From the IMG/VR virus record IMGVR_UViG_3300021468_000001, positions 1 to 64,000 of that record: a stretch of 64,000 nt of DNA, one strand, 5' to 3'. The DNA comes from a virus. Below are positions 21,567-62,230 of the stretch, piece after piece. The position numbers and the translations under genes were made by a program. The notes under the pieces are model-generated. The model searched no databases. It was given only the letters and a program-made list of their open reading frames with translations, and was not told the origin of the DNA. The stretch's first letter is position 1. Every line of letters starts with the position of its first letter.

Positions 21567-24500
21567 CTTCAATCCTCCTCACTCATTTTCTGCAGCGCAT
21601 CGTTCGCCGCTTTCGCAAGTAACAACCACCCGCCTAGCCGCATCTTTCGCGCAACGTCAACCGCGCTGCTTGCATACTGCCTCCCGCGGCGGATGTTACC
21701 ATCTTCCAGGCAACAAATCACGAGCCGTAAGTACTGCTTCAACATTTCAACTGCTTCTCCCTTCGACATGCCTGCCCCTCCAAAACAGCCCTCCGGGCTT
21801 GTCGAATACGAGCGCGCAACTCTAAAACTACATCACCGCCAAACTCTGTTGAGATTGAAGATAGCAGCCTTGAAGCACGCTCAATCATTCCCGGGTTGCC
21901 CGTAGTAACCGCGGCTTCGAGAACCTCAAGTACTTCACGCTGCCTATTCCTGACAACCTCAACTTGCCTGCGAAGCGTCGAAGTCTCCGCCATCCCATCT
22001 ACTGCCTCAATAAACCGCTCGCAAAACGAAAGGAAGTCGCAGTCGAGGCCCGCGACGATGTAAAGATTACGCAGTGCGTCTATTCGAAGTCCACGTTGCG
22101 CTATCGCCCCTCTTCGTTTTTGCTTTCGCTCCGGGTTGAACCGTATCATCATAGCCTCCTTTTATCCATATTGCCGTAGTAATCTGAGACCCGAACTCTT
22201 GCTCCAGTGCCGCGACTATTCCCCAATTTGCAGGCAATCCCAGTCGCTTGAGCCCGCGCTTCACGCGCCTGCTCCACTGCGCTGCTTTACCGCGACACTT
22301 GTTCAACTCAATCTTTATCTGATGTTTGCTTATCATCGTTCTATCCTTTCGACTCGCCCCGTCGTGAAGTCTGTCAACTTTAAGCCCGGGCCTTCCTGCT
22401 CCACCTTGATCTCCGCTTTCCACCACATTGGCGTCTGCAGTCCAATCACGACTCCCCAGCGCCGCTCCTTCCGAACCACCAAGGCAACCCCCCCCTGCTC
22501 CGCCATCTTGATAGCCCAGGCCAAAGCACCGCGTAAACTCCACCACTTCCGCATCTTTACGCCTGCACCCTCTAGCCTCGCATTCATGAAGATTCTCCCA
22601 AAGGAGGCCGTTACGTTGCGGCTCGTCCACCGCTCAGTCCAGCTCGGCAAGCTGCGTGCCTACTGTATCCGTCCCATCGGGCTCAGTCGCATGAAACAAC
22701 ACGCCGTTGTCAATCCACCACACGAAGCCGTGATAGTCGTCCATCTTTTCGCCAGACAGCAGGCATTTCCAGCAAGCCTCACAGACCTGCAATTCGCAGC
22801 CGCAGTAGCCTGCTTTCATCTCTTTCTCTGCATCCTTACCGCAAAAGACGCAGTCCATCTCAAACCTCCTTATAAGGCCGCATCCTCCAGGCATCTTGCG
22901 ATGAATCGGAAAACGTCCACTAATATAGTGAGACGCCACACGTCAGGCTCACGCCCGAAGACCATTCTCGCCAACTCCTTCTTGCTTGGCCCGCGGTGAA
23001 AGCACCAGCGGAATTTTATCACCCGGACTACTCTCCCCTCGCGCCTCCACAGGTAGTAATCTGCGTTCATTACGCCTAGCGGCACCCGCATTTGATACCA
23101 CTTCTCGCCGTCCACTGTTACTTGCCTTGCATTCATCACTCGGCCTCCCTATAGCAGCTCAACACGCCAATTGGCTTTCCAGTTGCTTAACCTGCCTCAC
23201 GCTCCACTTTTCAAACTCGCTGCTGAACCGTCCCGGTGTGCTCCACCTTCCGCGGTGCGAGCCTTCACGCCCGAGACCCCTTCGTTCTAATTCCGCCCAC
23301 GTCCACATACGCGGCGCGCTGCGTTTCCAGGCGCTCCTATCTACTACCGCTAACTGCCGCGTTATCGGCTCCCGCAAGTGGCCAGAGAATCGGAAGCCTG
23401 CGAATGCTCCGTTCATGCGCAGCGACACGTAAAATGACTCCGTTGTCTTCGCGCTGCTTACATACAGGTCTTTCGCGTTGCAGCCCCATCTGGCCAATAT
23501 CAGAAGCACGCACGCCGCGTCGCGCGCATACGTATCCTCTCCCGCTACTAGTCGCCGCAATGCGCAGCGTATGTTGCCTTTCTCTTTCTTCCAGAGCGGG
23601 TCCAACTCCGTCCTTTCCCAGGCCTCCCGCACCAGTTTACGAGCAATGCGCGCCGCCTTGCGCCAAACCTGCCGCCCTAATTCGTCACTCATCTGTCGCT
23701 GCCTCCTTCAGCGGCTTGATAAAAACTCCAATTCATAAGCAATCCTTGGCGCTGGCGCTATCTTCACACGAACGCCGTTCACGGTCTGAACAGGCTCTCC
23801 GCGCCGCGTCGTCCAGCCCACAAAATCAAGCCCGGCCCTCTCAACCGCGCCCTTGAGTTTACGGCAAAACCGCTGCCGGCTTTCCTCAACCCGCTTCTTC
23901 AACAATGACAATTTATACTCCAGATCATCTGCCCGTGAAGCCCTCGAAGTCTCCATCTCCACTACATCAATCACATGTTGAGAGTCGCCGTCTATCACCC
24001 AAACAACAAACGGCCTCCCCGTCTTGCTTTTCTCGGACGCTCGCACATAGGCTGTGTATCCAAGTCGCTCCAACGCCGCAGCCACACCTTCTGCCTCTTC
24101 CCTTGTTCGCATTGCATGGAACACCGCAAACTTTTCCGCCTCCGTCTTGCGCTTCATTATATCCTCCCTATATCGCTACGATTATTTCTCTGCGCTCAAC
24201 ACAAGGCCGCTTCTCAAGCGCGATCATCGCACGCTCCCAATTTCTCCACTTCTCCTCGTAGGCCTCCTCCGCCTCACGCCGCGCCCTGTAAACCGTCTTG
24301 CCGCCGTCGTGACTCCACACTACGCCCGGCGGCACGCCTTCGCCGCACCAGACTTTCCCAACGCGCTCCCACCGCGGCCCCATCCCGTTCCGAAACCTGC
24401 TCATTGCTCGCCCCCTCTAAAATTTCCCCCTCCACGCAAACGGGCCTATTACCAATGTTCCTCCTTCGTCCTCTGACCGAGCAGGCACCATCACCGCCTT

Positions 24501-25533
24501 CTCCTTCCGAAGTACCTGAGCCAAAATGTCAATGTGCTGACGAACCCATAAGTCCGCTTCAACAAACCCTATAGCCCACTCTATCGCTTCTCGCGCAGTC
24601 TCGCACTGCGATACGCCAAGCGGCGGAACGTCAACTATCCGCCCGTCCCGCCTCACAACTATCGCCAAGTATGCATTCCGCTCCATAATTCTTCCCTCAA
24701 CCGCTCAATCTATTCCGCCTACTGTTGTTTCCACTGCGATTGTCGGATACAGGCGACGTAGCAACCGCTTGAACGCCCCTTCGACTTCGTCCGGGTTTCT
24801 TGGCGCATTGCCCACCGATTCGCAGAGCCGAATTGCTTTCATGCAGTTCCGCACTGCTTCTCCGGCTGTATCGCCCCAGTCTGTCCATCTCCAATCCGTC
24901 CATTCCGCTCGCGCCTTCCATCGCTTCGTTTCCAGCGAGAATTCGATTGATACCTTTATCATCAGCACGTCCTCCAATCCACGACGTTTTTGCGAGCAGG
25001 CGAGTCAGGCTATTCACGCCTCAGTATTGCGTCCGTAACTTCCGCCGCCGCGTCGCGCACTTTCTCCATCATCTGGACGGCTTCCTGCAGCACTCGCAGC
25101 AGCTGCTTGGCAGGGCCTTCCGCCCCGCTGCCACTGTGGTCATAAACCGCGTCCTCGAGCGCGGCAAACCACATGAAGACGTTGCACAGACGCCCGCGCA
25201 ATTCCGCCGTGAATTTCTCCGCTTTCTCAATCGCGGCATCATGCTTTGCCTGCCCTTCCATTTTCCAGCCTCCTACGATTTGTCCGCAACCGCGGCGATT
25301 GTCTCCGCGGCCGACCGCAATTCGCCTATTTCACGGAACAAGTCATCCATAGCGCACGACAGGTCGCGCCCGTCACTATAGACCTTGTTCCTGATCGCCT
25401 CAAACTGCGTGGCCACCCTGCGGAGTTGCTCGCGAAACAGCACGAACAAGGCGGTTACTTCTCCGAGTTGTTGCGCTCCCATCTTCCGGCCTCCTATTGC
25501 AGCCCGACCGCATCCTGTTTTAGGGACGCGCGC

Positions 25534-25818
25534 GCGCCCGTATATCGCACGCCCGTATATAATATATATAGCCGGTCGCGCTCTGCGTTCCAGGGCGCGT
25601 GCGATCTGCGTTGTCTGCGCCTGCGCACTCCCAGGGGATTTCCCGCCCGCGTATTTGCGCTCGCACAAGTCGCAAGTCGACAGGGTTTTCTGCGAGCATA
25701 CGAGCCGTATGTGCGCGCTCGCGTAGCACGCACCCGCGCCCGCCCGTAGTACGTAGCACGTTTGCCCGCGCCCGTAGTACGTGCGCCCGTAGCACGCGCT
25801 CGCGCCTGTGTAGCACGT
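25534..25818. repeat. Non-coding cluster of GCCCGTA and TAGCACG direct repeats beside an AT-rich patch
   Basis: GCCCGTATAT x2, CGCCCGTAGTACGT x2, TAGCACG x4; TATATAATATATATA near 25556-25570. Confidence 0.7.
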
Positions 25819-25825
25819 GAGCGCG

Positions 25826-25868
25826 AAAAAAAAGAGCGCGGGGCGGGGCGCCCGCCGCCCACGCCCGC
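25826..25868 (-). terminator. Intrinsic terminator
   Basis: GC-rich hairpin followed by U8 downstream of 25975..26289. Confidence 0.6.
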
Positions 25869-26740
25869 GCCCACGTGATCCCGTGTCCGTGTCCGCGCGC
25901 CCCACCACGAACGGCGGACGGGGCGGCCCTGTGGCCGCCCGCGCCCGTCCGCGCCCGTGTGGTGGTGGTAGTGATCATTTTCGCGCGCCCGCCTTCTGCG
26001 CGGTTTTCTGGCCGGCCTGCATTTCGGCGAAGGCCGCGTCCACGACCGCGGCCAGTTTGCCAGAATACGCGAGCGCGGCCAGTTTGTACTTGTCCACCGC
26101 GGCCGCGCCACGTTTCAGTTGCGCGAATTCCGCGCCCGTGTCCACACAGACGCCCGCGCCCGGTTCTGTTCCGTCGCGCTCGTGACGTTCGCGAATGTGC
26201 GCGCGCGCGAGAAGCCAGTACGCGTGCGCCGGCTCGGCATTTTTGCCGTTGCCGTTGCCGTTGTTTCGACCATTGTTCGAGAGTCCCATCCCAAGACCTC
26301 CTATAGGGTTATTCTACGCGCGCGTTATACGCGCACCTTTTTCCGCGAACACCGCGGCGACCGCATCTGCCGCCGCACGTAACAGATTGTATTCGTGCTC
26401 GTTCATCACGTATCCCCTTATACACGCGCCCGCGTCGCCGCCGACCACCCGCGGCGCGCGTTCCATGTCGCGCCCTCGAGCGCCGTCTGTCGCCCGCCGC
26501 CTGCCGCACAGGCCCAATCCGCGAGCGCGTATCGCAACGCCGCGGATATCACCGACGCCAACGCCGCCGACGCCAACGCCACCACGCCCGCCTTGAACGC
26601 GCTCACGAAGAGCCGCGCGTTGAATCGGTCTTCCACGCCCGCGTTTCGATATGCGCCCGCAAATTCCCGCTTCCAATCCACCGCGTATTCCATGATCACC
26701 ACCTCCACATTGTCCGCCGCGGCCCACCCGTGACCGCCAC

Positions 26741-26769
26741 AATATACCCCACGGTCGCCGGACCCGCAA
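26741..26769 (-). promoter_or_regulatory. Leftward sigma70-type promoter (early arm)
   Basis: TTGCGG-17 nt-TATATT. Confidence 0.65.
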
Positions 26770-26909
26770 ACTTGCCCAAAACAAAAAATCCGCCGCCGCC
26801 GCGGGACGGCCGCAAACCGTTGCGCCACAAGGGGTTGCAAAATTGAAGCGGGGTCCGCAACGGGCCACGCAGCCCTCCACTCTCCTCGATGTATGAAGCT
26901 AAATGGGGC

Positions 26910-26938
26910 TTGCGTGTGGTGGGGTAGGGATGTAGAAT
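26910..26938 (+). promoter_or_regulatory. Rightward sigma70-type promoter (packaging/structural arm)
   Basis: TTGCGT-17 nt-TAGAAT. Confidence 0.65.
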
Positions 26939-26966
26939 AGTGTAGGAGATAGGGAGGAGACGAGAC

Positions 26967-27389
26967 GTGGGGCGAAAGGTAAGGGGGTTAGGGCGCGAGG
27001 TAGTTGAGGCGGTGATAGGGGGGATAGAGCGCGGGATAGAGGTAGGGGACATGGTACAGTTAGCGGTGCTGTGGGGCGAGTTATGGGAGGCGGAGGTAAG
27101 GAGCATGGGGGCAGTGAGGGCGCGGATAGGGGAGGTGAGGGAGCGGTTGGAAGGGGAGGTAGTAAAGCGGTTAGGGGAGGCAGAAGAGGTAAAAGGGAGG
27201 ATGTTAGAGGGGTGTGGGCGGATGATACAGGTGATGGCAGCGCGGCGGTATTTGATGGCGGAGCGTGCTGAGGCAGTAGAGCGTGGCGAGTGGAGGGCGG
27301 ATGGGCGGATAAAGGAGTGGCGCAAGATAGTGGGGGAGGTAGGGCGGTGCGCGAAGAAGAAGAATGGGGGCAAGGCAAGTGACGAATGA
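26967..27389 (+). CDS. Putative terminase small subunit
   Basis: Directly upstream of and overlapping the large subunit, helical, GGAGG RBS; function by position only. Confidence 0.5.
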   Translation: MGRKVRGLGREVVEAVIGGIERGIEVGDMVQLAVLWGELWEAEVRSMGAVRARIGEVRERLEGEVVKRLGEAEEVKGRMLEGCGRMIQVMAARRYLMAERAEAVERGEWRADGRIKEWRKIVGEVGRCAKKKNGGKASDE

Positions 27390-30192
27390 GGACAAGTTAC
27401 GGCGATTGGTAGGGTATCGGCCGGAGAGCAAGGAAGAGTTGTGGTTGTACTACAAAGCGGCGTTTGGGATGGGGCTGGTGCGAGAAAGTGTCTGTGAGGC
27501 ACACAGTTCGCAATTAGATTTTGCGTGGGAGATGGTGCGAGGCGGTGCGGGGAACATAATAGCGCTGGCATGTCGGCATGGTGGGAAGACAAGCACGGCA
27601 GCGGCAAGTACGTTGGTGCGGGCAGTTACGCAGCCTGATCTTGATGGATTTGTAATGAGCGGATGTGTTGCACCGTGGCAATTTTTGGTAGTGCAGGAAG
27701 GTGGGATGGTGTATTGCAAGCCGCTTGGTTGGGCAAAGGCAGGTGACGTGGTATGGACAAAAGAGGGATGGCGGAAGGTTAAAGCAGTAATGGTAAAGCC
27801 TGGGATAGAGGAGTTTTCGCGGCTTCGGACCGCGATAGGAGATATAACGACGACCGGCGACCATCTAATATACATAAAGGATGCAATAGATGGGGACCGG
27901 AAGTGGGTTCCTGCGAAGGATATAGGGCGTTTGCAGGTGCCGCTAGTCCCGACGCGAGGGGCTGACGGCTCGAGATTGTTACCATCGGATGAAAACTCCA
28001 CGCTCGATCCATATCTGGCTGGAGTGATGGCAGGTCTTCCGGTAGACAAAAAGAGAAGTACAAGCGAAATGCTTTATGTCAGGTGGGGGTGGCGGGCTCC
28101 TGTGGGCATGAAGAGCAAAAAGGGATTGGCTTGGCGAGCTGAGCGCGAGAAGGCATCATGCTTGGGGGCACTAGGGTATGCGGCAAAGATACTGAAAGGC
28201 GTGGGGGTCTATCTTCACATATATGAATGTAGTGGCGAGAAGGAAGGGTCTTTTAGCACAACTGTACCGGTAGCTTCGATTCCTCGAGCGTATCTCGAAC
28301 AGGACATTCGTTGGTATTGGCGGTACGATCGCGAGTGGCGGAGGCGCTTTCTGGAAGCATTTTTTGCGGTCGCATTTCGGAAAACTTCGTATGGGAAGGC
28401 GGGATATTTTCGGAGAAATGCTGGGGATGCTATATATTTTAGGGCAAGAGGATTGCCGCAAATCCCGGATCTTGTGAACGAACCTCTTTGGCGGCAGGAG
28501 ATTGCTAAGGCAAGCATAATCCTTTTGCTGAGTTTGGACGTTGCCGAGTTGTGGATGATCCCTACATGGCCGAAGTTCCCAACATGGATGCCATATAGTA
28601 GTCAGTTTCCTGCATTGGTTTGGTTTAGGCCGGGGTCCTCAATACCGATAACAGATATGCCGTTTAGGTCAGCAGTTTTCAAGGATAGCACGCTTTACAA
28701 TCCTGTTTTAATAGAACCGGCTCCTAGCGAGGTTTTTATAGGGAGGGCTGGGATAAAGGACAAGAGAAAGCGGGGCGATCCATCGGTATTTTTTGATCTT
28801 GAGATTGAGGGCGCCGACAACTTTATGATTCTACCTGGTTGCATCGTTCACAATTCAAAACGGCAGGCACGAAGATTTTATCAGTTTTTTGAAAAGATGT
28901 CGCGGAAGTCTTGGTTTGAAGATGATTTTGATGGTAGGCCGGAGAAGGAGGAAGTGCGATTCAAAACCGGGAGTCGTGTAGAGATTCTTGCTACTTCGGA
29001 AACGTCAGCGCGATCTCCTCATGGGAACTTAATTATTGCCGATGAAGCAGATGCAATTCCATCAGGCGTCTATGAATCGTTGAATTTTGCGGTTGACCTA
29101 ACAGACGAAATATCAGATAGGCGCGCCCTGTTCGTTATTACGTCAACGCAGCATAGGCTTGGTGGAAATATCTCGCGATTGCTCGAGAGATTAGAAGAAC
29201 AGGGATCGAAGCATACTCGCGTTTTTCGATGGTGCATGAGGGAGGTGATTGCTCCATGCCCGCGCGATGCGGTTTGTGCGAATTGCGACTTGTTCAATGA
29301 TTGTGGAGGTGTAGCAAAAGAAAAGCAAGACGGGTTTCTAACGAGAGAAAAACTGGTTTCATTGAAAGAACGACTGGTTAGTAAGGATGCGTGGGATCGC
29401 GAGATGATGCTGAAGCCGCCTCGAGCAGGCGATACCGCTTGTCCTCTTTTCAGGGATGGATTTCCTTATGTCTATCGCTTCGATGCGATGAAAACACTAC
29501 CTTCTTTTCATGGCTGGGATTTTGGAGTTTCGACGGCGATTGTGTTTGCCAATTTTGATGAGAAGAAACAGCGAGTTTTTGTCTTTGATGAGCGGCTTAT
29601 TCAGCATAAAGACCATCAGCACGTTGTTGATGTTGTGAATCGGATAGATGCGTATCACAGACTACCTAACCCGAAATCGTTTGGAGATCCGCATGGCGGG
29701 CAAGATATTCTTACATATGCACGTCTTGGGCATGTAATTTTGTCATATATGGGGCGGAGAAAACAGAGTAGACTAGATGTTCTAAACTGGTTTATGGAGT
29801 ATCGGGACGACGGCAAGCCCGGGATTGCAATACATCCGCGGTGCAAACAGCTAAGGCATGAATTGATTGTTGCTACTAGGGGTGACCTTATTCAGTATGA
29901 TCCGGTTTCAAAGAAGAGACTTGTAGTTGCAAAAGAAGGATTCCATATCCTAAATGCCCTAATATATCTTTTGGATGGGATTTATATGGGCCTTGATAGA
30001 AGCCGAGAGGTGTTGGCAAGAGAACGGAGAAAAGCGATAAATGCATCTTTGGGGACTGTTCCTCATCCTAATTGGGGAAAGGGCAAGAGAATTCATAATG
30101 AAGGTTCTCCGCCCTTTATCATCGAGCCTGGTGCCCCGCCTTCTCTTGATGGCATTGATGAAGGACTTGACCTTAATGCTGGCTTAGGTTAA
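27364..30192 (+). CDS. terL: Terminase large subunit with intein
   Basis: Walker A CRHGGKT, Walker B IIADEAD, TSTQ coupling motif, nuclease GWDFG. Confidence 0.93.
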   Translation: MGARQVTNEDKLRRLVGYRPESKEELWLYYKAAFGMGLVRESVCEAHSSQLDFAWEMVRGGAGNIIALACRHGGKTSTAAASTLVRAVTQPDLDGFVMSGCVAPWQFLVVQEGGMVYCKPLGWAKAGDVVWTKEGWRKVKAVMVKPGIEEFSRLRTAIGDITTTGDHLIYIKDAIDGDRKWVPAKDIGRLQVPLVPTRGADGSRLLPSDENSTLDPYLAGVMAGLPVDKKRSTSEMLYVRWGWRAPVGMKSKKGLAWRAEREKASCLGALGYAAKILKGVGVYLHIYECSGEKEGSFSTTVPVASIPRAYLEQDIRWYWRYDREWRRRFLEAFFAVAFRKTSYGKAGYFRRNAGDAIYFRARGLPQIPDLVNEPLWRQEIAKASIILLLSLDVAELWMIPTWPKFPTWMPYSSQFPALVWFRPGSSIPITDMPFRSAVFKDSTLYNPVLIEPAPSEVFIGRAGIKDKRKRGDPSVFFDLEIEGADNFMILPGCIVHNSKRQARRFYQFFEKMSRKSWFEDDFDGRPEKEEVRFKTGSRVEILATSETSARSPHGNLIIADEADAIPSGVYESLNFAVDLTDEISDRRALFVITSTQHRLGGNISRLLERLEEQGSKHTRVFRWCMREVIAPCPRDAVCANCDLFNDCGGVAKEKQDGFLTREKLVSLKERLVSKDAWDREMMLKPPRAGDTACPLFRDGFPYVYRFDAMKTLPSFHGWDFGVSTAIVFANFDEKKQRVFVFDERLIQHKDHQHVVDVVNRIDAYHRLPNPKSFGDPHGGQDILTYARLGHVILSYMGRRKQSRLDVLNWFMEYRDDGKPGIAIHPRCKQLRHELIVATRGDLIQYDPVSKKRLVVAKEGFHILNALIYLLDGIYMGLDRSREVLARERRKAINASLGTVPHPNWGKGKRIHNEGSPPFIIEPGAPPSLDGIDEGLDLNAGLG
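27664..28854 (+). mobile_element. Intein (397 aa) with probable degenerate LAGLIDADG endonuclease
   Basis: Starts CVAPW, block B TTGDH, PYLAGVMAG, FFDLEIEG.DNF, ends IVHN followed by Ser. Confidence 0.92.
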
Positions 30193-30224: not shown

Positions 30225-31772
30225 ATGCCGAGTCGAAAAGTGTTTCCGCCTCAACTCCTTCCGGAAAAGTCTAAGGGAGTTCTCAAAAGCATAGAGGATG
30301 GAACTGATGAAAGAAAAAAAGAGCGCCTTTTGCAAGACTATCAGAAGATGCGAGACTGTCCTACCATTAGGTTCTGTTTTTTTCTTATTTCCTTGCCGAT
30401 TCGTAGAGCAAGAATTACGTATCAGCATCCAGATGCCGAAATACGAGAGTTTGTGAACAGGAACCTCGCAATTATTAGGCGAAACCTTACTGAGCATATC
30501 CTTGCTGGTCTTGAATTTGGGTTCGCACCATTCGAGAAACGATTTCAGGTAATTGACTCGCGAGTTTTTTACAAAGAGTTTTTGCCGCTTCGTCCCTGGC
30601 ATGTGAAAGTCTTGACAGATGGAGTATCTTTCAAAGGAATGAGGCTTTTTAAGCAGCCGATTTATCATGGTGAAGGCGGTTCATTTGTTGAGATTCCGCC
30701 GAGAAAAAGCTTTATCTATACCCATCAATTCAGATTCATGGACTTTCGAGGCGAATCACTCTACCGTTCAGCGCGGATTCCTTGGCTTCTTTGGAAAGAA
30801 GTGGTACGACTTCACGCGCACACCATGCAGGACCATGCACTTCCGCCGCTTGAGGCGAGAGCGCCTGATGCTGTTCTTACCATAAACTATGATGATAGGG
30901 TTGAACAAATAACTGCTCGCGAGTTGATGATAAGGGTAGCAGAGGCGATTCGGTCGAGGTCGTCCTATTTGCTGCCTCCCGACGAGGATTATGGGATTGA
31001 GGCGAAACAAACTGCGCGACAGTGGGACTATGAGAAAGATTACGACCTTTGTGAGCGGATGATTGCTCAATCTTTATTGACGCCGAGAGACCTTTTTAGG
31101 GAAGGTGGCGGATCCTATGCAAAAGCGTACGTCCAGTCGCATTGGTTTGCTGGGATTGTAGATGCTATAGTCGAGGAAATTATATCTTTCGTGTTCTCAT
31201 TTGCGATAGTCCCCATCGTCCGCTATAACTTTGCGAAATACCAGGATCCCGCAATTCATGATTTTGGCAGGCTTTCGTATGAAAGCTTGTCACTGAAAGA
31301 CATTGACTTTCTTCAGAAACTTGCGTTGACGATGGTAAAAGAAGGGTTTGCAGATGAAGTACCGGAACCGGCAGAAATTTTGAAGCGCCTTCACGTACCA
31401 ATCAAAACCCGCCCGGGCAAGCCGTTGCTTTCGATGCCAATATCAAAGGCATCGCTTTTCGAGAGTCTGAGAAAAGAACTATTTGCAGAGATTGCCCGAA
31501 CGAAAGAAGAGCTTGGGTTCTCCGAATACATTTCTGTTCCACCTCAAGTGATGGCATTCTTGAAAAATTTTGCCGGGAAAACAATGGACCTCGTTGAGGA
31601 AAGTACGGATCGCGATGCCGTCTTGTCGGATGCGTTGCTTAAGGCGCATTCACTTGCTCGTGCTTTGACGTATACTGCTCTTGGTTCTAAGGTCTGGAGG
31701 GTTGATACTCATGACGATTCTGGATCTATTGAAAGTCCCGCCAGAGAAATACTCGCCTCAAAAGATAAGTGA
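30225..31772 (+). CDS. Portal protein (DUF935/Mu gp29-like)
   Basis: Follows terL; LEFGFAPFEK, GESLYRSARIPWLLWK, GGSYA. Confidence 0.88.
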   Translation: MPSRKVFPPQLLPEKSKGVLKSIEDGTDERKKERLLQDYQKMRDCPTIRFCFFLISLPIRRARITYQHPDAEIREFVNRNLAIIRRNLTEHILAGLEFGFAPFEKRFQVIDSRVFYKEFLPLRPWHVKVLTDGVSFKGMRLFKQPIYHGEGGSFVEIPPRKSFIYTHQFRFMDFRGESLYRSARIPWLLWKEVVRLHAHTMQDHALPPLEARAPDAVLTINYDDRVEQITARELMIRVAEAIRSRSSYLLPPDEDYGIEAKQTARQWDYEKDYDLCERMIAQSLLTPRDLFREGGGSYAKAYVQSHWFAGIVDAIVEEIISFVFSFAIVPIVRYNFAKYQDPAIHDFGRLSYESLSLKDIDFLQKLALTMVKEGFADEVPEPAEILKRLHVPIKTRPGKPLLSMPISKASLFESLRKELFAEIARTKEELGFSEYISVPPQVMAFLKNFAGKTMDLVEESTDRDAVLSDALLKAHSLARALTYTALGSKVWRVDTHDDSGSIESPAREILASKDK

Positions 31773-59901: not shown

Positions 59902-60434
59902 TGAAAAATCTTTCGTTCAAAGAACTTTGGGAATACCTTGAAGAAAGAGCAAAGACAACTAAGGGGTGGCACATTTCAATTCGAGGAGAACCTGAGGAAA
60001 TTCTGCGGGCATTGAAGGGTATAATCCCGAAGGGTAGGATTCTTGAAGTTGGGGCTCGTGGCGGTCGGCTTCAAAAACTGTGTGATTCGCTAAAATATGA
60101 TTATGCTGGCGTGGAATTTTCGGAAGCGATGGTCGAAGGTAACGATGCGCTTCTTCCGGTTCGGAAACCGTCTGATTTGCCAGAGGGGCCTTTCGACTGC
60201 GTAGTTTTGAACACAACAATTTGTATGCTATCACGGAAGGCTGCGAAGTCTCTTGTGAATGAGGCGACAGCCCGCTTAAAAGAAAACGGGGTTCTGATTC
60301 AGGTTGATCCCAAAGCCAAAAGGCTGTTTACCCTCCCAGATGGGAATATGATTGAAGTTACGGCGTTCAGCGAACCACACGTAATCATTCACCGAAAGAA
60401 AGAAAAGGATGCCCGCTCCAGTCGTCGGCGTTAA
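59898..60434 (+). CDS. Class I SAM-dependent methyltransferase-like protein
   Basis: ILEVGARGGR, GVEFSEAM, GPFDCVV, LKENG. Confidence 0.75.
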   Translation: MMKNLSFKELWEYLEERAKTTKGWHISIRGEPEEILRALKGIIPKGRILEVGARGGRLQKLCDSLKYDYAGVEFSEAMVEGNDALLPVRKPSDLPEGPFDCVVLNTTICMLSRKAAKSLVNEATARLKENGVLIQVDPKAKRLFTLPDGNMIEVTAFSEPHVIIHRKKEKDARSSRRR

Positions 60435-61284
60435 GATTCATGGCGGAATCGGAAATGCGCTTCAGTCGTTGCCGTTAATTCGCCACCTTCAGTCCTTAGG
60501 GATTACACCGAATGTTTTACCTGGGCGATTAGAATCTGGCGGGATCTCAGATATTTTCCGGTGTCTCGCGCAACACGAAAGGGTGCTCTTTGATGCAAAC
60601 GTTATAATGCAATTTGTGCTAGATCTCCCCTATTTTAAGAACTGCGTTTCGCCCATGACGGGAATGCCGCTTTTTTGGCATGAAGTATTTGATGTTTCAT
60701 GGGGATGGCTTTCTGGTGAAGCGGCCCTTTACTTGAGGATGGCAACAACGGAAAAAACATTGCCTCCACCTCAGAAGTACCGTTTTTATCTAGATGCGGA
60801 TATAAAACGAGTTGAGCAATGGAAGGGGCGAACGGTGGTTTCTTTTGAGGGGAAGCGTAAACAGAAAATTAAACGGTATCCATTTGCGGTTGAAGTAGCA
60901 GAGCGTCTTCCGGGATCCGTTTTTGTTGGCCTTGAACGTCTGCCTGCACTTCCTGAGTCTGTCATCGACCTACGCGGAAAATTGAAACTAACGGAGGTTG
61001 CCGCTCTTTTGGGCAGTGCAAAAAGGTGTATTGCAAATGACAGTGGGATTGCTCATCTATCAGCCGCTGTTGGTTGTCCAACTTTTGTTATTTTTGGGCC
61101 AACATCTCCGTTAAAAAATAGACCGCCCTGGCCTTGGGTTGAGGTTTTCACGAAGCAAGAAGGATGCATTGATTGCCAGTCAAAGGGGGCAATGAAAGAA
61201 GATTGCCCGCTTTCAATGCCCCCGCCCTGCCTTTCAATCGATCCTGGCTATATCCTTGCCGAGTTTAAAAAAAGATTTCCTTGA
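60409..61284 (+). CDS. Glycosyltransferase family 9 (heptosyltransferase-like)
   Basis: GGIGN, DLRGKL.L, IANDSGIAHLSAAVGCPTFVIFGPT. Confidence 0.92.
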   Translation: MPAPVVGVKIHGGIGNALQSLPLIRHLQSLGITPNVLPGRLESGGISDIFRCLAQHERVLFDANVIMQFVLDLPYFKNCVSPMTGMPLFWHEVFDVSWGWLSGEAALYLRMATTEKTLPPPQKYRFYLDADIKRVEQWKGRTVVSFEGKRKQKIKRYPFAVEVAERLPGSVFVGLERLPALPESVIDLRGKLKLTEVAALLGSAKRCIANDSGIAHLSAAVGCPTFVIFGPTSPLKNRPPWPWVEVFTKQEGCIDCQSKGAMKEDCPLSMPPPCLSIDPGYILAEFKKRFP

Positions 61285-62230
61285 CTTTTGCCATCCACTT
61301 CTCAGCGCGGTGCCTATAAGTATGAAACCCATGCGCTTGTTTCCATGCGCTCTCTCGCTTTTCGTAAATCTCATCTTCTCCAATTGTTTCGATGATGTTT
61401 AGTGCAGACTCCACAATGTTAGATTTGCTCGTCCAAAACACCGAATCGCCGAATTCCAGTTTTAATTCTTGTCGCTCGATTGCGAGATAGCTTGCACCCC
61501 ACCCTGTCATTATGTAAATGCGGTTTGACCAATAATGGTCCATAACCAAATTGGGAGCATCAAGTACGATCTTATATTGCGGAATTACCTGCCCGAGCCT
61601 CCACCCATATACTCCACGCCTGATATTTTTTACTTTGCCATCCAGCCCTTCGATCATCTCTATCCGTTCTTTTTGATAGAGCATCCCAACGAAAAGGGCT
61701 TTTTTTCTAATAGGAACCGTTAGGAACGGCCACTTGCTTCTACAACCCTGTCTGATTAGAACCCAGTCAACGTGAGGGGCTAGATACTCCCATCGCCCAG
61801 TTGCAAATACTGGTATCTCAGACGGAACCTTTTTGAGAAAAATCTTTCTACTACGAGTGTCCATGCAATCAAAAGTGAAAAGTAGAAGTCTTGACTTATC
61901 TACTCTCTGCCATCCTGGCATGTCTTCTTTTCTAAGTGGAATCGCGACGATAGAATCTGGTGGGGCATCCAAAGGATCCCGAACAGCGTGGACAATAAAA
62001 TTACTTGCTGCTTTCTTGATATGATAAGGAGGGTTTGCCCTCGGCAATGGGAGCGGTCCTTCGTAGCTTGCCCCCGCCTCGCAGAATCCTTCAATTAGGT
62101 CCCACTCTGTTGGGATTTGCCCCCAAGGATATTGCGAGATTCTAATTACAAAGGTTAGGCGGGGGGACCGCCCGCGAGGTGCGGGATGGAGGGGCTCGCT
62201 CCGCACCCCGCGAGTTTTGCCCGGCCCCAT
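61265..62230 (-). CDS. GT-B glycosyltransferase (CgeB/YkvP-like)
   Basis: ALFVG, YWSNRIY..TGWG, HTYRHRA. Confidence 0.75.
   Translation of the reverse strand: MGPGKTRGVRSEPLHPAPRGRSPRLTFVIRISQYPWGQIPTEWDLIEGFCEAGASYEGPLPLPRANPPYHIKKAASNFIVHAVRDPLDAPPDSIVAIPLRKEDMPGWQRVDKSRLLLFTFDCMDTRSRKIFLKKVPSEIPVFATGRWEYLAPHVDWVLIRQGCRSKWPFLTVPIRKKALFVGMLYQKERIEMIEGLDGKVKNIRRGVYGWRLGQVIPQYKIVLDAPNLVMDHYWSNRIYIMTGWGASYLAIERQELKLEFGDSVFWTSKSNIVESALNIIETIGEDEIYEKRESAWKQAHGFHTYRHRAEKWMAKVKEIFF
62171..62214 (-). ncRNA. 14-bp hairpin with anti-Shine-Dalgarno loop inside the 5' end of the glycosyltransferase ORF
   Basis: CUCGCGGGGUGCGG/CCGCACCUCGCGGG; loop AGCGAGCCCCUCCAUC. Confidence 0.5.

Follow-up and report, generated by a model that had tools for sequence, protein, structure and literature searches.

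Genome layout and the tract at the divergence point

The DNA analyzed here (the window) is the 64,000-nucleotide (nt) stretch at positions 1 to 64,000 of IMG/VR virus record IMGVR_UViG_3300021468_000001, and it belongs to a tailed phage. At the point where the two gene arms of this phage diverge lies a tract whose plus strand holds no TC or CC dinucleotide (together, YC; counts refer to the plus strand unless stated). The tract contains a 79-nt leader, an open reading frame (ORF) of 140 codons (ORF140) and the initial 53 nt of the overlapping terL. The features on which the following analysis rests are listed below.

26872..26887, plus strand: pyrimidine-rich block GCCCTCCACTCTCCTC, ending exactly at the switch point
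26888..26966, plus strand: YC-free leader of ORF140
26967..27389, plus strand: ORF140, orphan helical protein of 140 codons; GTG start; overlaps the start of terL by 26 nt
27364-30192, plus strand: terL, with a 397-residue intein inside
27364..27663, plus strand: terL N-extein, residues 1-100 including the GGKT motif; G 40%, C 16%, YC odds 0.41, G at third codon positions (G3) 0.48
27664..28854, plus strand: intein in terL, 397 residues from Cys101 to Asn497, then Ser+1 (Ser498)

Minus-strand genes lie to the left of ~26.8 kb and to the right of ~61.3 kb, with plus-strand genes in between. Position 26887/26888 is both the point of divergence of the two arms and the minimum of the cumulative GC skew, and the opposite switch in orientation near 61 kb gives arms of ~34 and 40 kb.

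Extent and composition of the YC-free tract

The YC-free run spans 26887-27417 (531 nt), bounded by the YC at 26886-26887 and the next at 27417-27418. No other YC-free run of the window comes near this length: the next longest measure 108 nt on the plus strand and 130 nt on the minus strand. An earlier note on this DNA had reported about 530 nt without TC or CC, with each C following a purine and no Pro in the encoded protein, and all of these statements were confirmed. Positions 26887-27416 contain 263 G, 131 A, 86 T and 50 C, and the dinucleotides that end in C comprise 41 GC, 8 AC, 0 TC and 0 CC. The tract is thereby 74-77% purine, 50% G, 16% T and 9% C. Its 300-nt windows are the most purine-rich sense-strand windows of the genome (0.77 versus a mean of 0.556, or 4.6 standard deviations), whereas sense-strand purine amounts to 54% on the right arm and 57% on the left arm genome-wide. 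In nearly all other ORFs, the YC odds of the coding strand are ~1.

The two edges of the tract differ in character, as the earlier note had described. The onset is sharp: from a frequency of 0.37-0.44, C declines to 0.07 in the next 90-nt window, right after the pyrimidine block, and the purine-rich strand changes from minus on the left of this block to plus on its right. The bias then fades inside terL. From 27428 to ~27790, 7 YC are present (all by 27787) versus about 20 expected, and background is reached from about 27788. The fading is stepwise at third codon positions, where G3 decreases from 0.63 in ORF140 to 0.48 in the terL N-extein, 0.37 in the intein and 0.27 in the C-extein (the baseline of the arm), and T at third positions (T3) rises along the same steps from 0.06 in ORF140 to 0.37 in the C-extein. 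As regards the intein itself, it is inserted ~25 residues past the GGKT motif and ends in His-Asn497 before Ser498. Its sole family signal is a weak match of its C-terminal end to the Pfam family Intein_splicing (E 0.004). The compositional decay of the tract stops ~130 nt into the intein.

Further features lie within or opposite the tract.

26889 (ATG) to 26927 (TAG), plus strand: 12-codon ORF MYEAKWGLRVVG, starting one base past the onset of the tract
26952-26959, plus strand: Shine-Dalgarno-like GGGAGGAG, 7 nt before the GTG start of ORF140
26899-27378 and 26696-27607, minus strand: antisense ORFs of 159 and 303 amino acids, rich in Pro, Ser, Thr and Leu

The 12-codon ORF has no Shine-Dalgarno sequence upstream and could be a leaderless upstream ORF if a transcript starts at ~26888. 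The two long antisense ORFs stay open because the minus strand is poor in A and G; they were rejected as genes, as they are not conserved in the related contig described below.

Pyrimidine avoidance in codon and amino acid choice

The absence of YC is real and statistically strong. By mononucleotide shuffling, 12.7 YC are expected and the probability of none, P(0), is about 3.6e-7; for the same protein written in the late-gene codon usage of the phage, 16.7 YC are expected and none of 20,000 samples was free of YC; with base frequencies set for each codon position, 9.2 are expected (P about 1e-4). These expectations collapse once the codons of ORF140 itself are used: synonymous permutation leaves 1.3 expected YC (P(0) = 0.23) and permutation of codon order leaves 2.2 (P(0) = 0.08). 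The YC-free state therefore resides in the choice of codons and amino acids.

That choice is extreme. ORF140 is 51% G and 10% C, with 63% G, 23% A, 7% C and 6% T at third positions and 0 YC. The codons NYC, TCN and CCN are all unused, and codons common in the late genes are either unused or nearly so (GTT falls from 49% to 1/18, ATT plus ATC from 77% to 0/7 and CTT from 38% to 0/8). Purine-ending codons dominate instead, with GTA/GTG making up 17/18 of Val, GCA/GCG 13/14 of Ala and GGG 18/21 of Gly. Between the two purines, G is favored over A: GGA accounts for 0/21 Gly codons, AGA for 0/20 Arg codons and GAA for 3/22 Glu codons. The amino acid content is shifted as well. Glu outnumbers Asp 22 to 3, and Pro, Thr, His and Phe are all absent, where about 7, 6, 2 and 7, respectively, would be expected from late genes at this size. 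Because Thr (ACN) and His are also missing, although neither requires YC, the primary feature is general pyrimidine avoidance, and the absence of YC is largely a by-product of it. Shine-Dalgarno-like or GGA motifs are no more frequent in the tract than its composition predicts.

Lineage specificity and relatives of ORF140

An exhaustive protein search with ORF140 returned one true family, consisting of P0007 and three close variants (P0007-P0010) of 150-152 amino acids (E 1.4e-5; by BLASTP, 38% identity over 65 residues, E 9e-13). One locus is available for comparison, a 1,298-nt metagenome contig (L017) in which the homologous ORF150 overlaps terL in the same order as ORF140 does, and to whose terL the phage terL N-terminus is 58% identical over 86 aligned residues. 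ORF150 has 34 YC among its 109 C and an ordinary set of residues (5 Pro, 8 Thr, 2 His and 4 Phe). At conserved residues, the phage uses TTA/TTG, AGG, ATA, GTA, AGT and TTT where L017 uses CTN, CGG, ATC, GTC, TCT and TTC. The homolog is thus ordinary in composition, and the amino acids of the family do not explain the bias, an outcome that the earlier note had proposed to check in relatives. By comparison with the single relative found, the bias acts at the nucleotide level and is specific to the lineage rather than a property of the protein family. The gene contexts differ too, as ORF150 is preceded by a gene on the same strand and ORF140 heads its arm.

By position alone, ORF140 is a candidate small terminase (TerS): it lies directly upstream of terL on the same strand and overlaps it, an arrangement shared with L017. 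ORF140 matched no family in Pfam or PHROG, including TerS profiles, and an atlas search with the homolog P0007 gave no usable match that bears on its identity. Its structure model is all-helical but poor, with a predicted local distance difference test (pLDDT) score of 49.

Beyond L017, the relatives of the phage are distant. The Mu-type portal gene (30225-31772, plus strand) follows terL, and genes for a DNA methylase and a helicase lie on the opposite arm. The closest relatives of the portal are P0002 (57% identity) and P0003 (45%), and its only genomic relative is a 28%-identical match in a Phycisphaerales metagenome-assembled genome. Portal scans of viral contigs and metagenomes gave no close relative, with matches at only 21-29% identity, and no long YC-free run occurs in the loci of these matches. 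No match was obtained by blastn of the phage against the phage collection or to Rfam families, and no tRNA genes were found. In seven of 16 distant loci (L002, L003, L006, L012, L013, L014 and L016), the window of strongest GC skew is found near the small genes ahead of terL, at a distance of 2-3.9 kb upstream of the portal; the skew in these seven is modest (0.27-0.54 versus 0.74 here), may reflect charged small proteins and is not used as evidence. At the other end of the arms, the last genes (60409-61284, plus strand; 61265-62230, minus strand) converge with a 20-nt overlap at 61265-61284. This overlap leaves no space for an intrinsic terminator, so transcripts of each arm would enter the antisense strand of the other.

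Assembly support and possible origins by mutation or mosaic ancestry

The earlier note had placed a probable genome end, joined in the assembly, at the onset of the tract. This premise did not hold. The window derives from a 74,682-bp contig with an identical 127 nt at both ends; since these ends repeat, the contig is a circularly closed assembly with an arbitrary break, and the overlap lies at window position 1 rather than at 26887. Position 26887 is moreover bridged by independent contigs from runs X2 (24000-27275) and X5 (26610-26929). The tract is therefore not the scar of a genome end. The phage is present in ten runs, of which nine are labeled as hydrothermal-vent metagenomes and one as a sediment metagenome, and all sequence support comes from assembled contigs.

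An origin of the tract in sequencing or assembly, such as over-calling of G or a chimeric join, has next to no likelihood. It would account for the fall in depth within 26.8-27.6 kb in three runs, whose contigs break there. On the other hand, the tract maintains an open frame, and its homology extends to ORF150 and terL of L017, a contig of independent origin. JGI and ENA/Logan assemblies, deposited separately, encode the same protein. Positions 27186-27347 are matched without a mismatch by a contig from another run, and both edges of the tract are spanned by contigs. Uncovered parts within 27.0-27.6 kb in runs X4 and X5 are uninformative. In detail, contig depth across 26814-27617 is several-fold lower or zero in three independent Nextera libraries (runs X3-X5), and in runs X3 and X5 the depth to the left of 26.8 kb is several times that to the right. 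A fall of depth in such a G-rich tract would fit a composition bias of library preparation or sequencing.

Also very unlikely is the mechanism that the earlier note had offered, which assumes a stretch that is terminal, single-stranded for a time or injected first. Such a stretch would have lost its YC to a YC-specific cytosine deaminase, or it would avoid YCN protospacer-adjacent motifs (PAMs) or the TC-containing sites of DarT. That one strand is wholly free of YC, with a sharp onset, agrees with this mechanism, and displacement of the plus strand by an R-loop would be one way to expose only that strand. Deamination in YC context should nevertheless leave its products behind, and these are not enriched: TT is found 12 times versus 14 expected and CT 4 times versus 8.1, T makes up only 16% and third positions with C in L017 more often hold A or G than T in the phage. 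APOBEC-type deaminase footprints in viral genomes likewise show TC and CC lost from one strand, but here TT, CT and T are not gained, and it is G that accumulates instead of T or A. Avoidance of PAMs or other duplex motifs is contradicted by the complementary strand, which carries 177 YC in the same 530 bp and leaves the duplex fully targetable. The DarT idea needs the plus strand alone to be exposed at the tract and leaves the 50% G unexplained; neither this G content nor the avoidance of Thr (ACN) and His follows from a deaminase, PAMs or DarT. What stands of the earlier interpretation is a strand-specific bias at the nucleotide level.

It is rather unlikely, though of more weight than the preceding accounts, that the tract has no dedicated function. 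A GC-rich island at the junction, perhaps due to biased repair or mosaic ancestry, and the purine loading of the whole genome would together have driven a coiled-coil protein under weak constraint to a G-only extreme. Close to the junction, both arms have an elevated GC content at third codon positions (GC3; 0.58-0.79 on the left and 0.70 in ORF140), which returns to ~0.40-0.45 within a few kb, and the stepwise drop in composition from ORF140 through the N-extein and intein to the C-extein would be expected of mosaic joints in the vicinity of an intein homing site. L017 is itself G3-rich (0.40-0.42), and the ORF140 family evolves fast, with 31-38% identity. However, the known mutation linked to single-stranded DNA or transcription (C to T) should raise T, and T3 is 0.06. 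The loss of four amino acids together with the use of codons rare in late genes indicates directional pressure and not drift. We also know of no donor with 77% purine, a level that lies 4.6 standard deviations above the sense-strand mean of the genome.

Possible selection by Rho-dependent termination

We tentatively favor, at less than an even chance, the reading that the tract, at the head of the packaging operon and beside the divergent control region, is an extreme local form of transcription-direction purine loading, selected at the level of transcription and Rho termination. The primary binding clefts of Rho bind 5'-YC (PMC12360218), and Rho utilization (rut) sites are biased toward C over G (PMC13650167). 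Where RNA polymerase runs ahead of the ribosomes, avoidance of Rho drives a purine bias of coding strands, with purine-ending (R-ending) codons and purine-rich residues (Dierksheide, Taggart, Johnson, Li 2026, PMC13323073). In the same work, pyrimidine-rich antisense RNA is terminated by Rho, purine-rich coding strands make their antisense strands targets, synonymous recoding toward pyrimidines is enough to cause termination and phages are listed with other foreign elements as facing the Rho barrier.

Rho target scores were computed over the whole phage genome in 300-nt fragments, with coefficients from the supplement of PMC13323073 that were calibrated on Bacillus subtilis. By this measure, just 0.3% of the sense fragments would be targets of Rho, as opposed to 58% of the antisense fragments, and the whole phage obeys the purine-loading rule. 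The antisense strand at 26.9-27.3 kb is the maximum of the genome, with a log10 score of 2.52 as compared with 1.88 at the next locus. Across 26.85-27.3 kb, C does not exceed G in any 150-nt window of the sense strand (excess C of 0), and the antisense strand has an excess C of 2.5-2.8. This is the asymmetry associated with Rho avoidance, and ORF140 has the accompanying R-ending four-fold codons and purine-rich amino acids. Predicted folding of the sense RNA is about half as strong as that of the homologous stretch of L017 (−116 versus −206 kcal/mol over 561 nt). The position of the tract is also in line with this reading, as composition is ordinary in L017, where the gene follows one on the same strand, and extreme where the gene heads its arm.

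Further features lie beside the tract or reach into it.

26792..26810, minus strand: intrinsic-terminator-like GC hairpin and U-run, just past the C-rich antisense tract in the leftward direction and ahead of the first leftward gene
26418..26693, minus strand: first gene of the leftward arm, with ATG at 26693 (MEYAVDWK...); the listed ORF opens upstream at TTG 26840; other side of the divergence point
26872-26893 and 27277-27298: 22-nt inverted repeat I2, 82% complementary, in which the pyrimidine block pairs with a site that contains GGAGGGC and lies close to the 3' end of ORF140

In the proposed mechanism, the leader, ORF140 and the first ~100 codons of terL would have been recoded toward G and A, both at synonymous sites and in amino acid content. 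The rightward (sense) RNA would offer Rho no loading site, because YC is absent and G far exceeds C, and would fold weakly. The leftward (antisense) RNA, at 50% C and with 177 YC, is the strongest predicted Rho target of the genome, and in the leftward direction it is followed by the terminator-like hairpin. Together, the sense and antisense pair would shield the divergent control region from incoming antisense transcription. We infer a selective role for Rho, the presence of Rho in the host and a transcript start near 26888; the composition, the lineage specificity, the position and the predicted scores are shown by the data above. The terminator role of the hairpin at 26792..26810 is suggestive only, as terminator-like matches as a class do not exceed those in shuffled sequences. 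Neither the leader nor a putative leftward RNA of ~95 nt (26887-26790) showed significant RNA structure. The I2 pairing recurs in the minimum-free-energy fold, which is no better than the folds of shuffled sequences.

Several points weigh against Rho as the cause. Near the tract, no sigma-70-like promoter was found. The sense score saturates, with an excess C of 0 across nearly the whole genome, and thus the published metric gives no added benefit on the sense strand for so extreme a composition. The first genes of the leftward arm are GC3-rich and not depleted in C (G3 0.54, C 0.25 and T3 0.07 at third positions of 26418..26693). The score is calibrated on B. subtilis, and the reading presumes a host with Rho. 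Leftward transcription would in most cases have run into other Rho targets before reaching the tract, which makes the need for a super-target unclear, and avoidance of pyrimidines alone predicts no preference of G over A among purines. Lastly, the comparison covers one genome and one relative.

Set beside the documented Rho-avoidance bias, the tract shares a purine-rich sense strand with a pyrimidine-rich antisense strand, R-ending four-fold codons and purine-rich residues (PMC13323073). The documented bias differs in being mild and genome-wide, at about 54% purine, whereas here a single leader and gene of 530 nt reach 74-77% purine and zero YC from an abrupt start at the strand switch. It also differs in having been established by experiment, the phage tract being known from sequence alone. 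A related precedent is well established: under Szybalski's transcription-direction rule and in the purine loading of thermophiles, the mRNA-synonymous strands are purine-rich. The hydrothermal-vent habitat and the genome-wide 54-57% sense purine agree with these precedents, and the local magnitude (4.6 standard deviations above the mean), the preference of G over A and the sharp boundary do not. The tract is an extreme case of an already known kind of strand bias.

Possible R-loop element at the arm junction

A DNA-level element at the arm junction is the other functional explanation that needs to be weighed, and it is possible, if somewhat doubtful. Here a lasting R-loop of purine-rich RNA on pyrimidine-rich DNA, driven by the G-rich non-template strand, would prime replication or mark the start of packaging (pac) in a terS-like gene, with the coding sequence bent to it. 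Pac sites are frequently embedded in terS genes, and hybrids of purine-rich RNA with DNA are exceptionally stable. G-rich non-template regions that form R-loops are known from the ColE1 RNA II origin, mitochondrial conserved sequence block II (CSB II) and the immunoglobulin switch regions.

The tract lies at the minimum of the cumulative GC skew, where gene orientation switches. A scan with our own implementation of the QmRLFS rules, which call for a G-cluster initiation zone and then at least 100 nt with >=40% G on the non-template strand, finds the only long R-loop-forming sequence of the genome at this position, with initiation zones at 26969-27132 (the first at 26969-26993) and an elongation zone of ~1425 nt at >=40% G, the longest in the genome. 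Shorter R-loop-forming sequences lie on the minus strand at 24.4-25.9 kb. Runs of three or more G reach 22 per 500 nt, as compared with a median of 5. Internal repeats of ~21 nt are present at 27107-27172, and iteron-like repeats GCCCGTAGYACG occur three times at 25742-25796, ~1 kb away (0.28 expected by chance). This resembles the known regions in that clusters of G precede a long G-dense non-template stretch close to a control region and a turning point of GC skew. Those regions are non-coding or intronic and mostly shorter, unlike the tract, which is a translated gene and for which a role in an R-loop or origin is only predicted.

Other observations argue against a DNA element. Neither a canonical G-quadruplex motif nor a DnaA box was found in searches for both. 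The bias is spread evenly across all codons and the leader and is not concentrated in discrete sites. L017 lacks the bias, although it too must replicate and be packaged. The rules used in the scan were, in addition, derived for eukaryotic genes.

The iteron-like repeats fall in an apparently non-coding and very GC-rich stretch (25500-25960) that also has 15-nt tandem units at 25531-25560 and 25768-25796. A hairpin with a T8 terminator on the minus strand (25853-25834) forms the right-hand bound of this stretch. The stretch may be an operator array or an origin.

Selection by Rho and R-loop formation can coexist, since a G-rich RNA that is proof against Rho would also be the most prone to form an R-loop. 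In such a combination, the junction would be a one-way transcription valve and an origin at the GC-skew minimum: the rightward RNA, invisible to Rho, would persist as an R-loop that primes replication or licenses packaging, and the leftward RNA would be the strongest Rho target. This combined arrangement is improbable as a whole.

Implications

If the tract was shaped by Rho, then a functional gene can lose four amino acids and every YC under such selection, and the pressure of termination on phage genes would be far stronger and more local than the mild genome-wide bias described so far. The two strands of the tract would then represent a natural pair, one Rho-proof and one Rho-maximal, for testing what Rho needs for loading. 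If the tract is instead an R-loop origin or a packaging signal within a gene, the composition of a protein would have yielded to the demands of a DNA element, which would be unusual. Under either reading, the tract is a compact and directly testable object.

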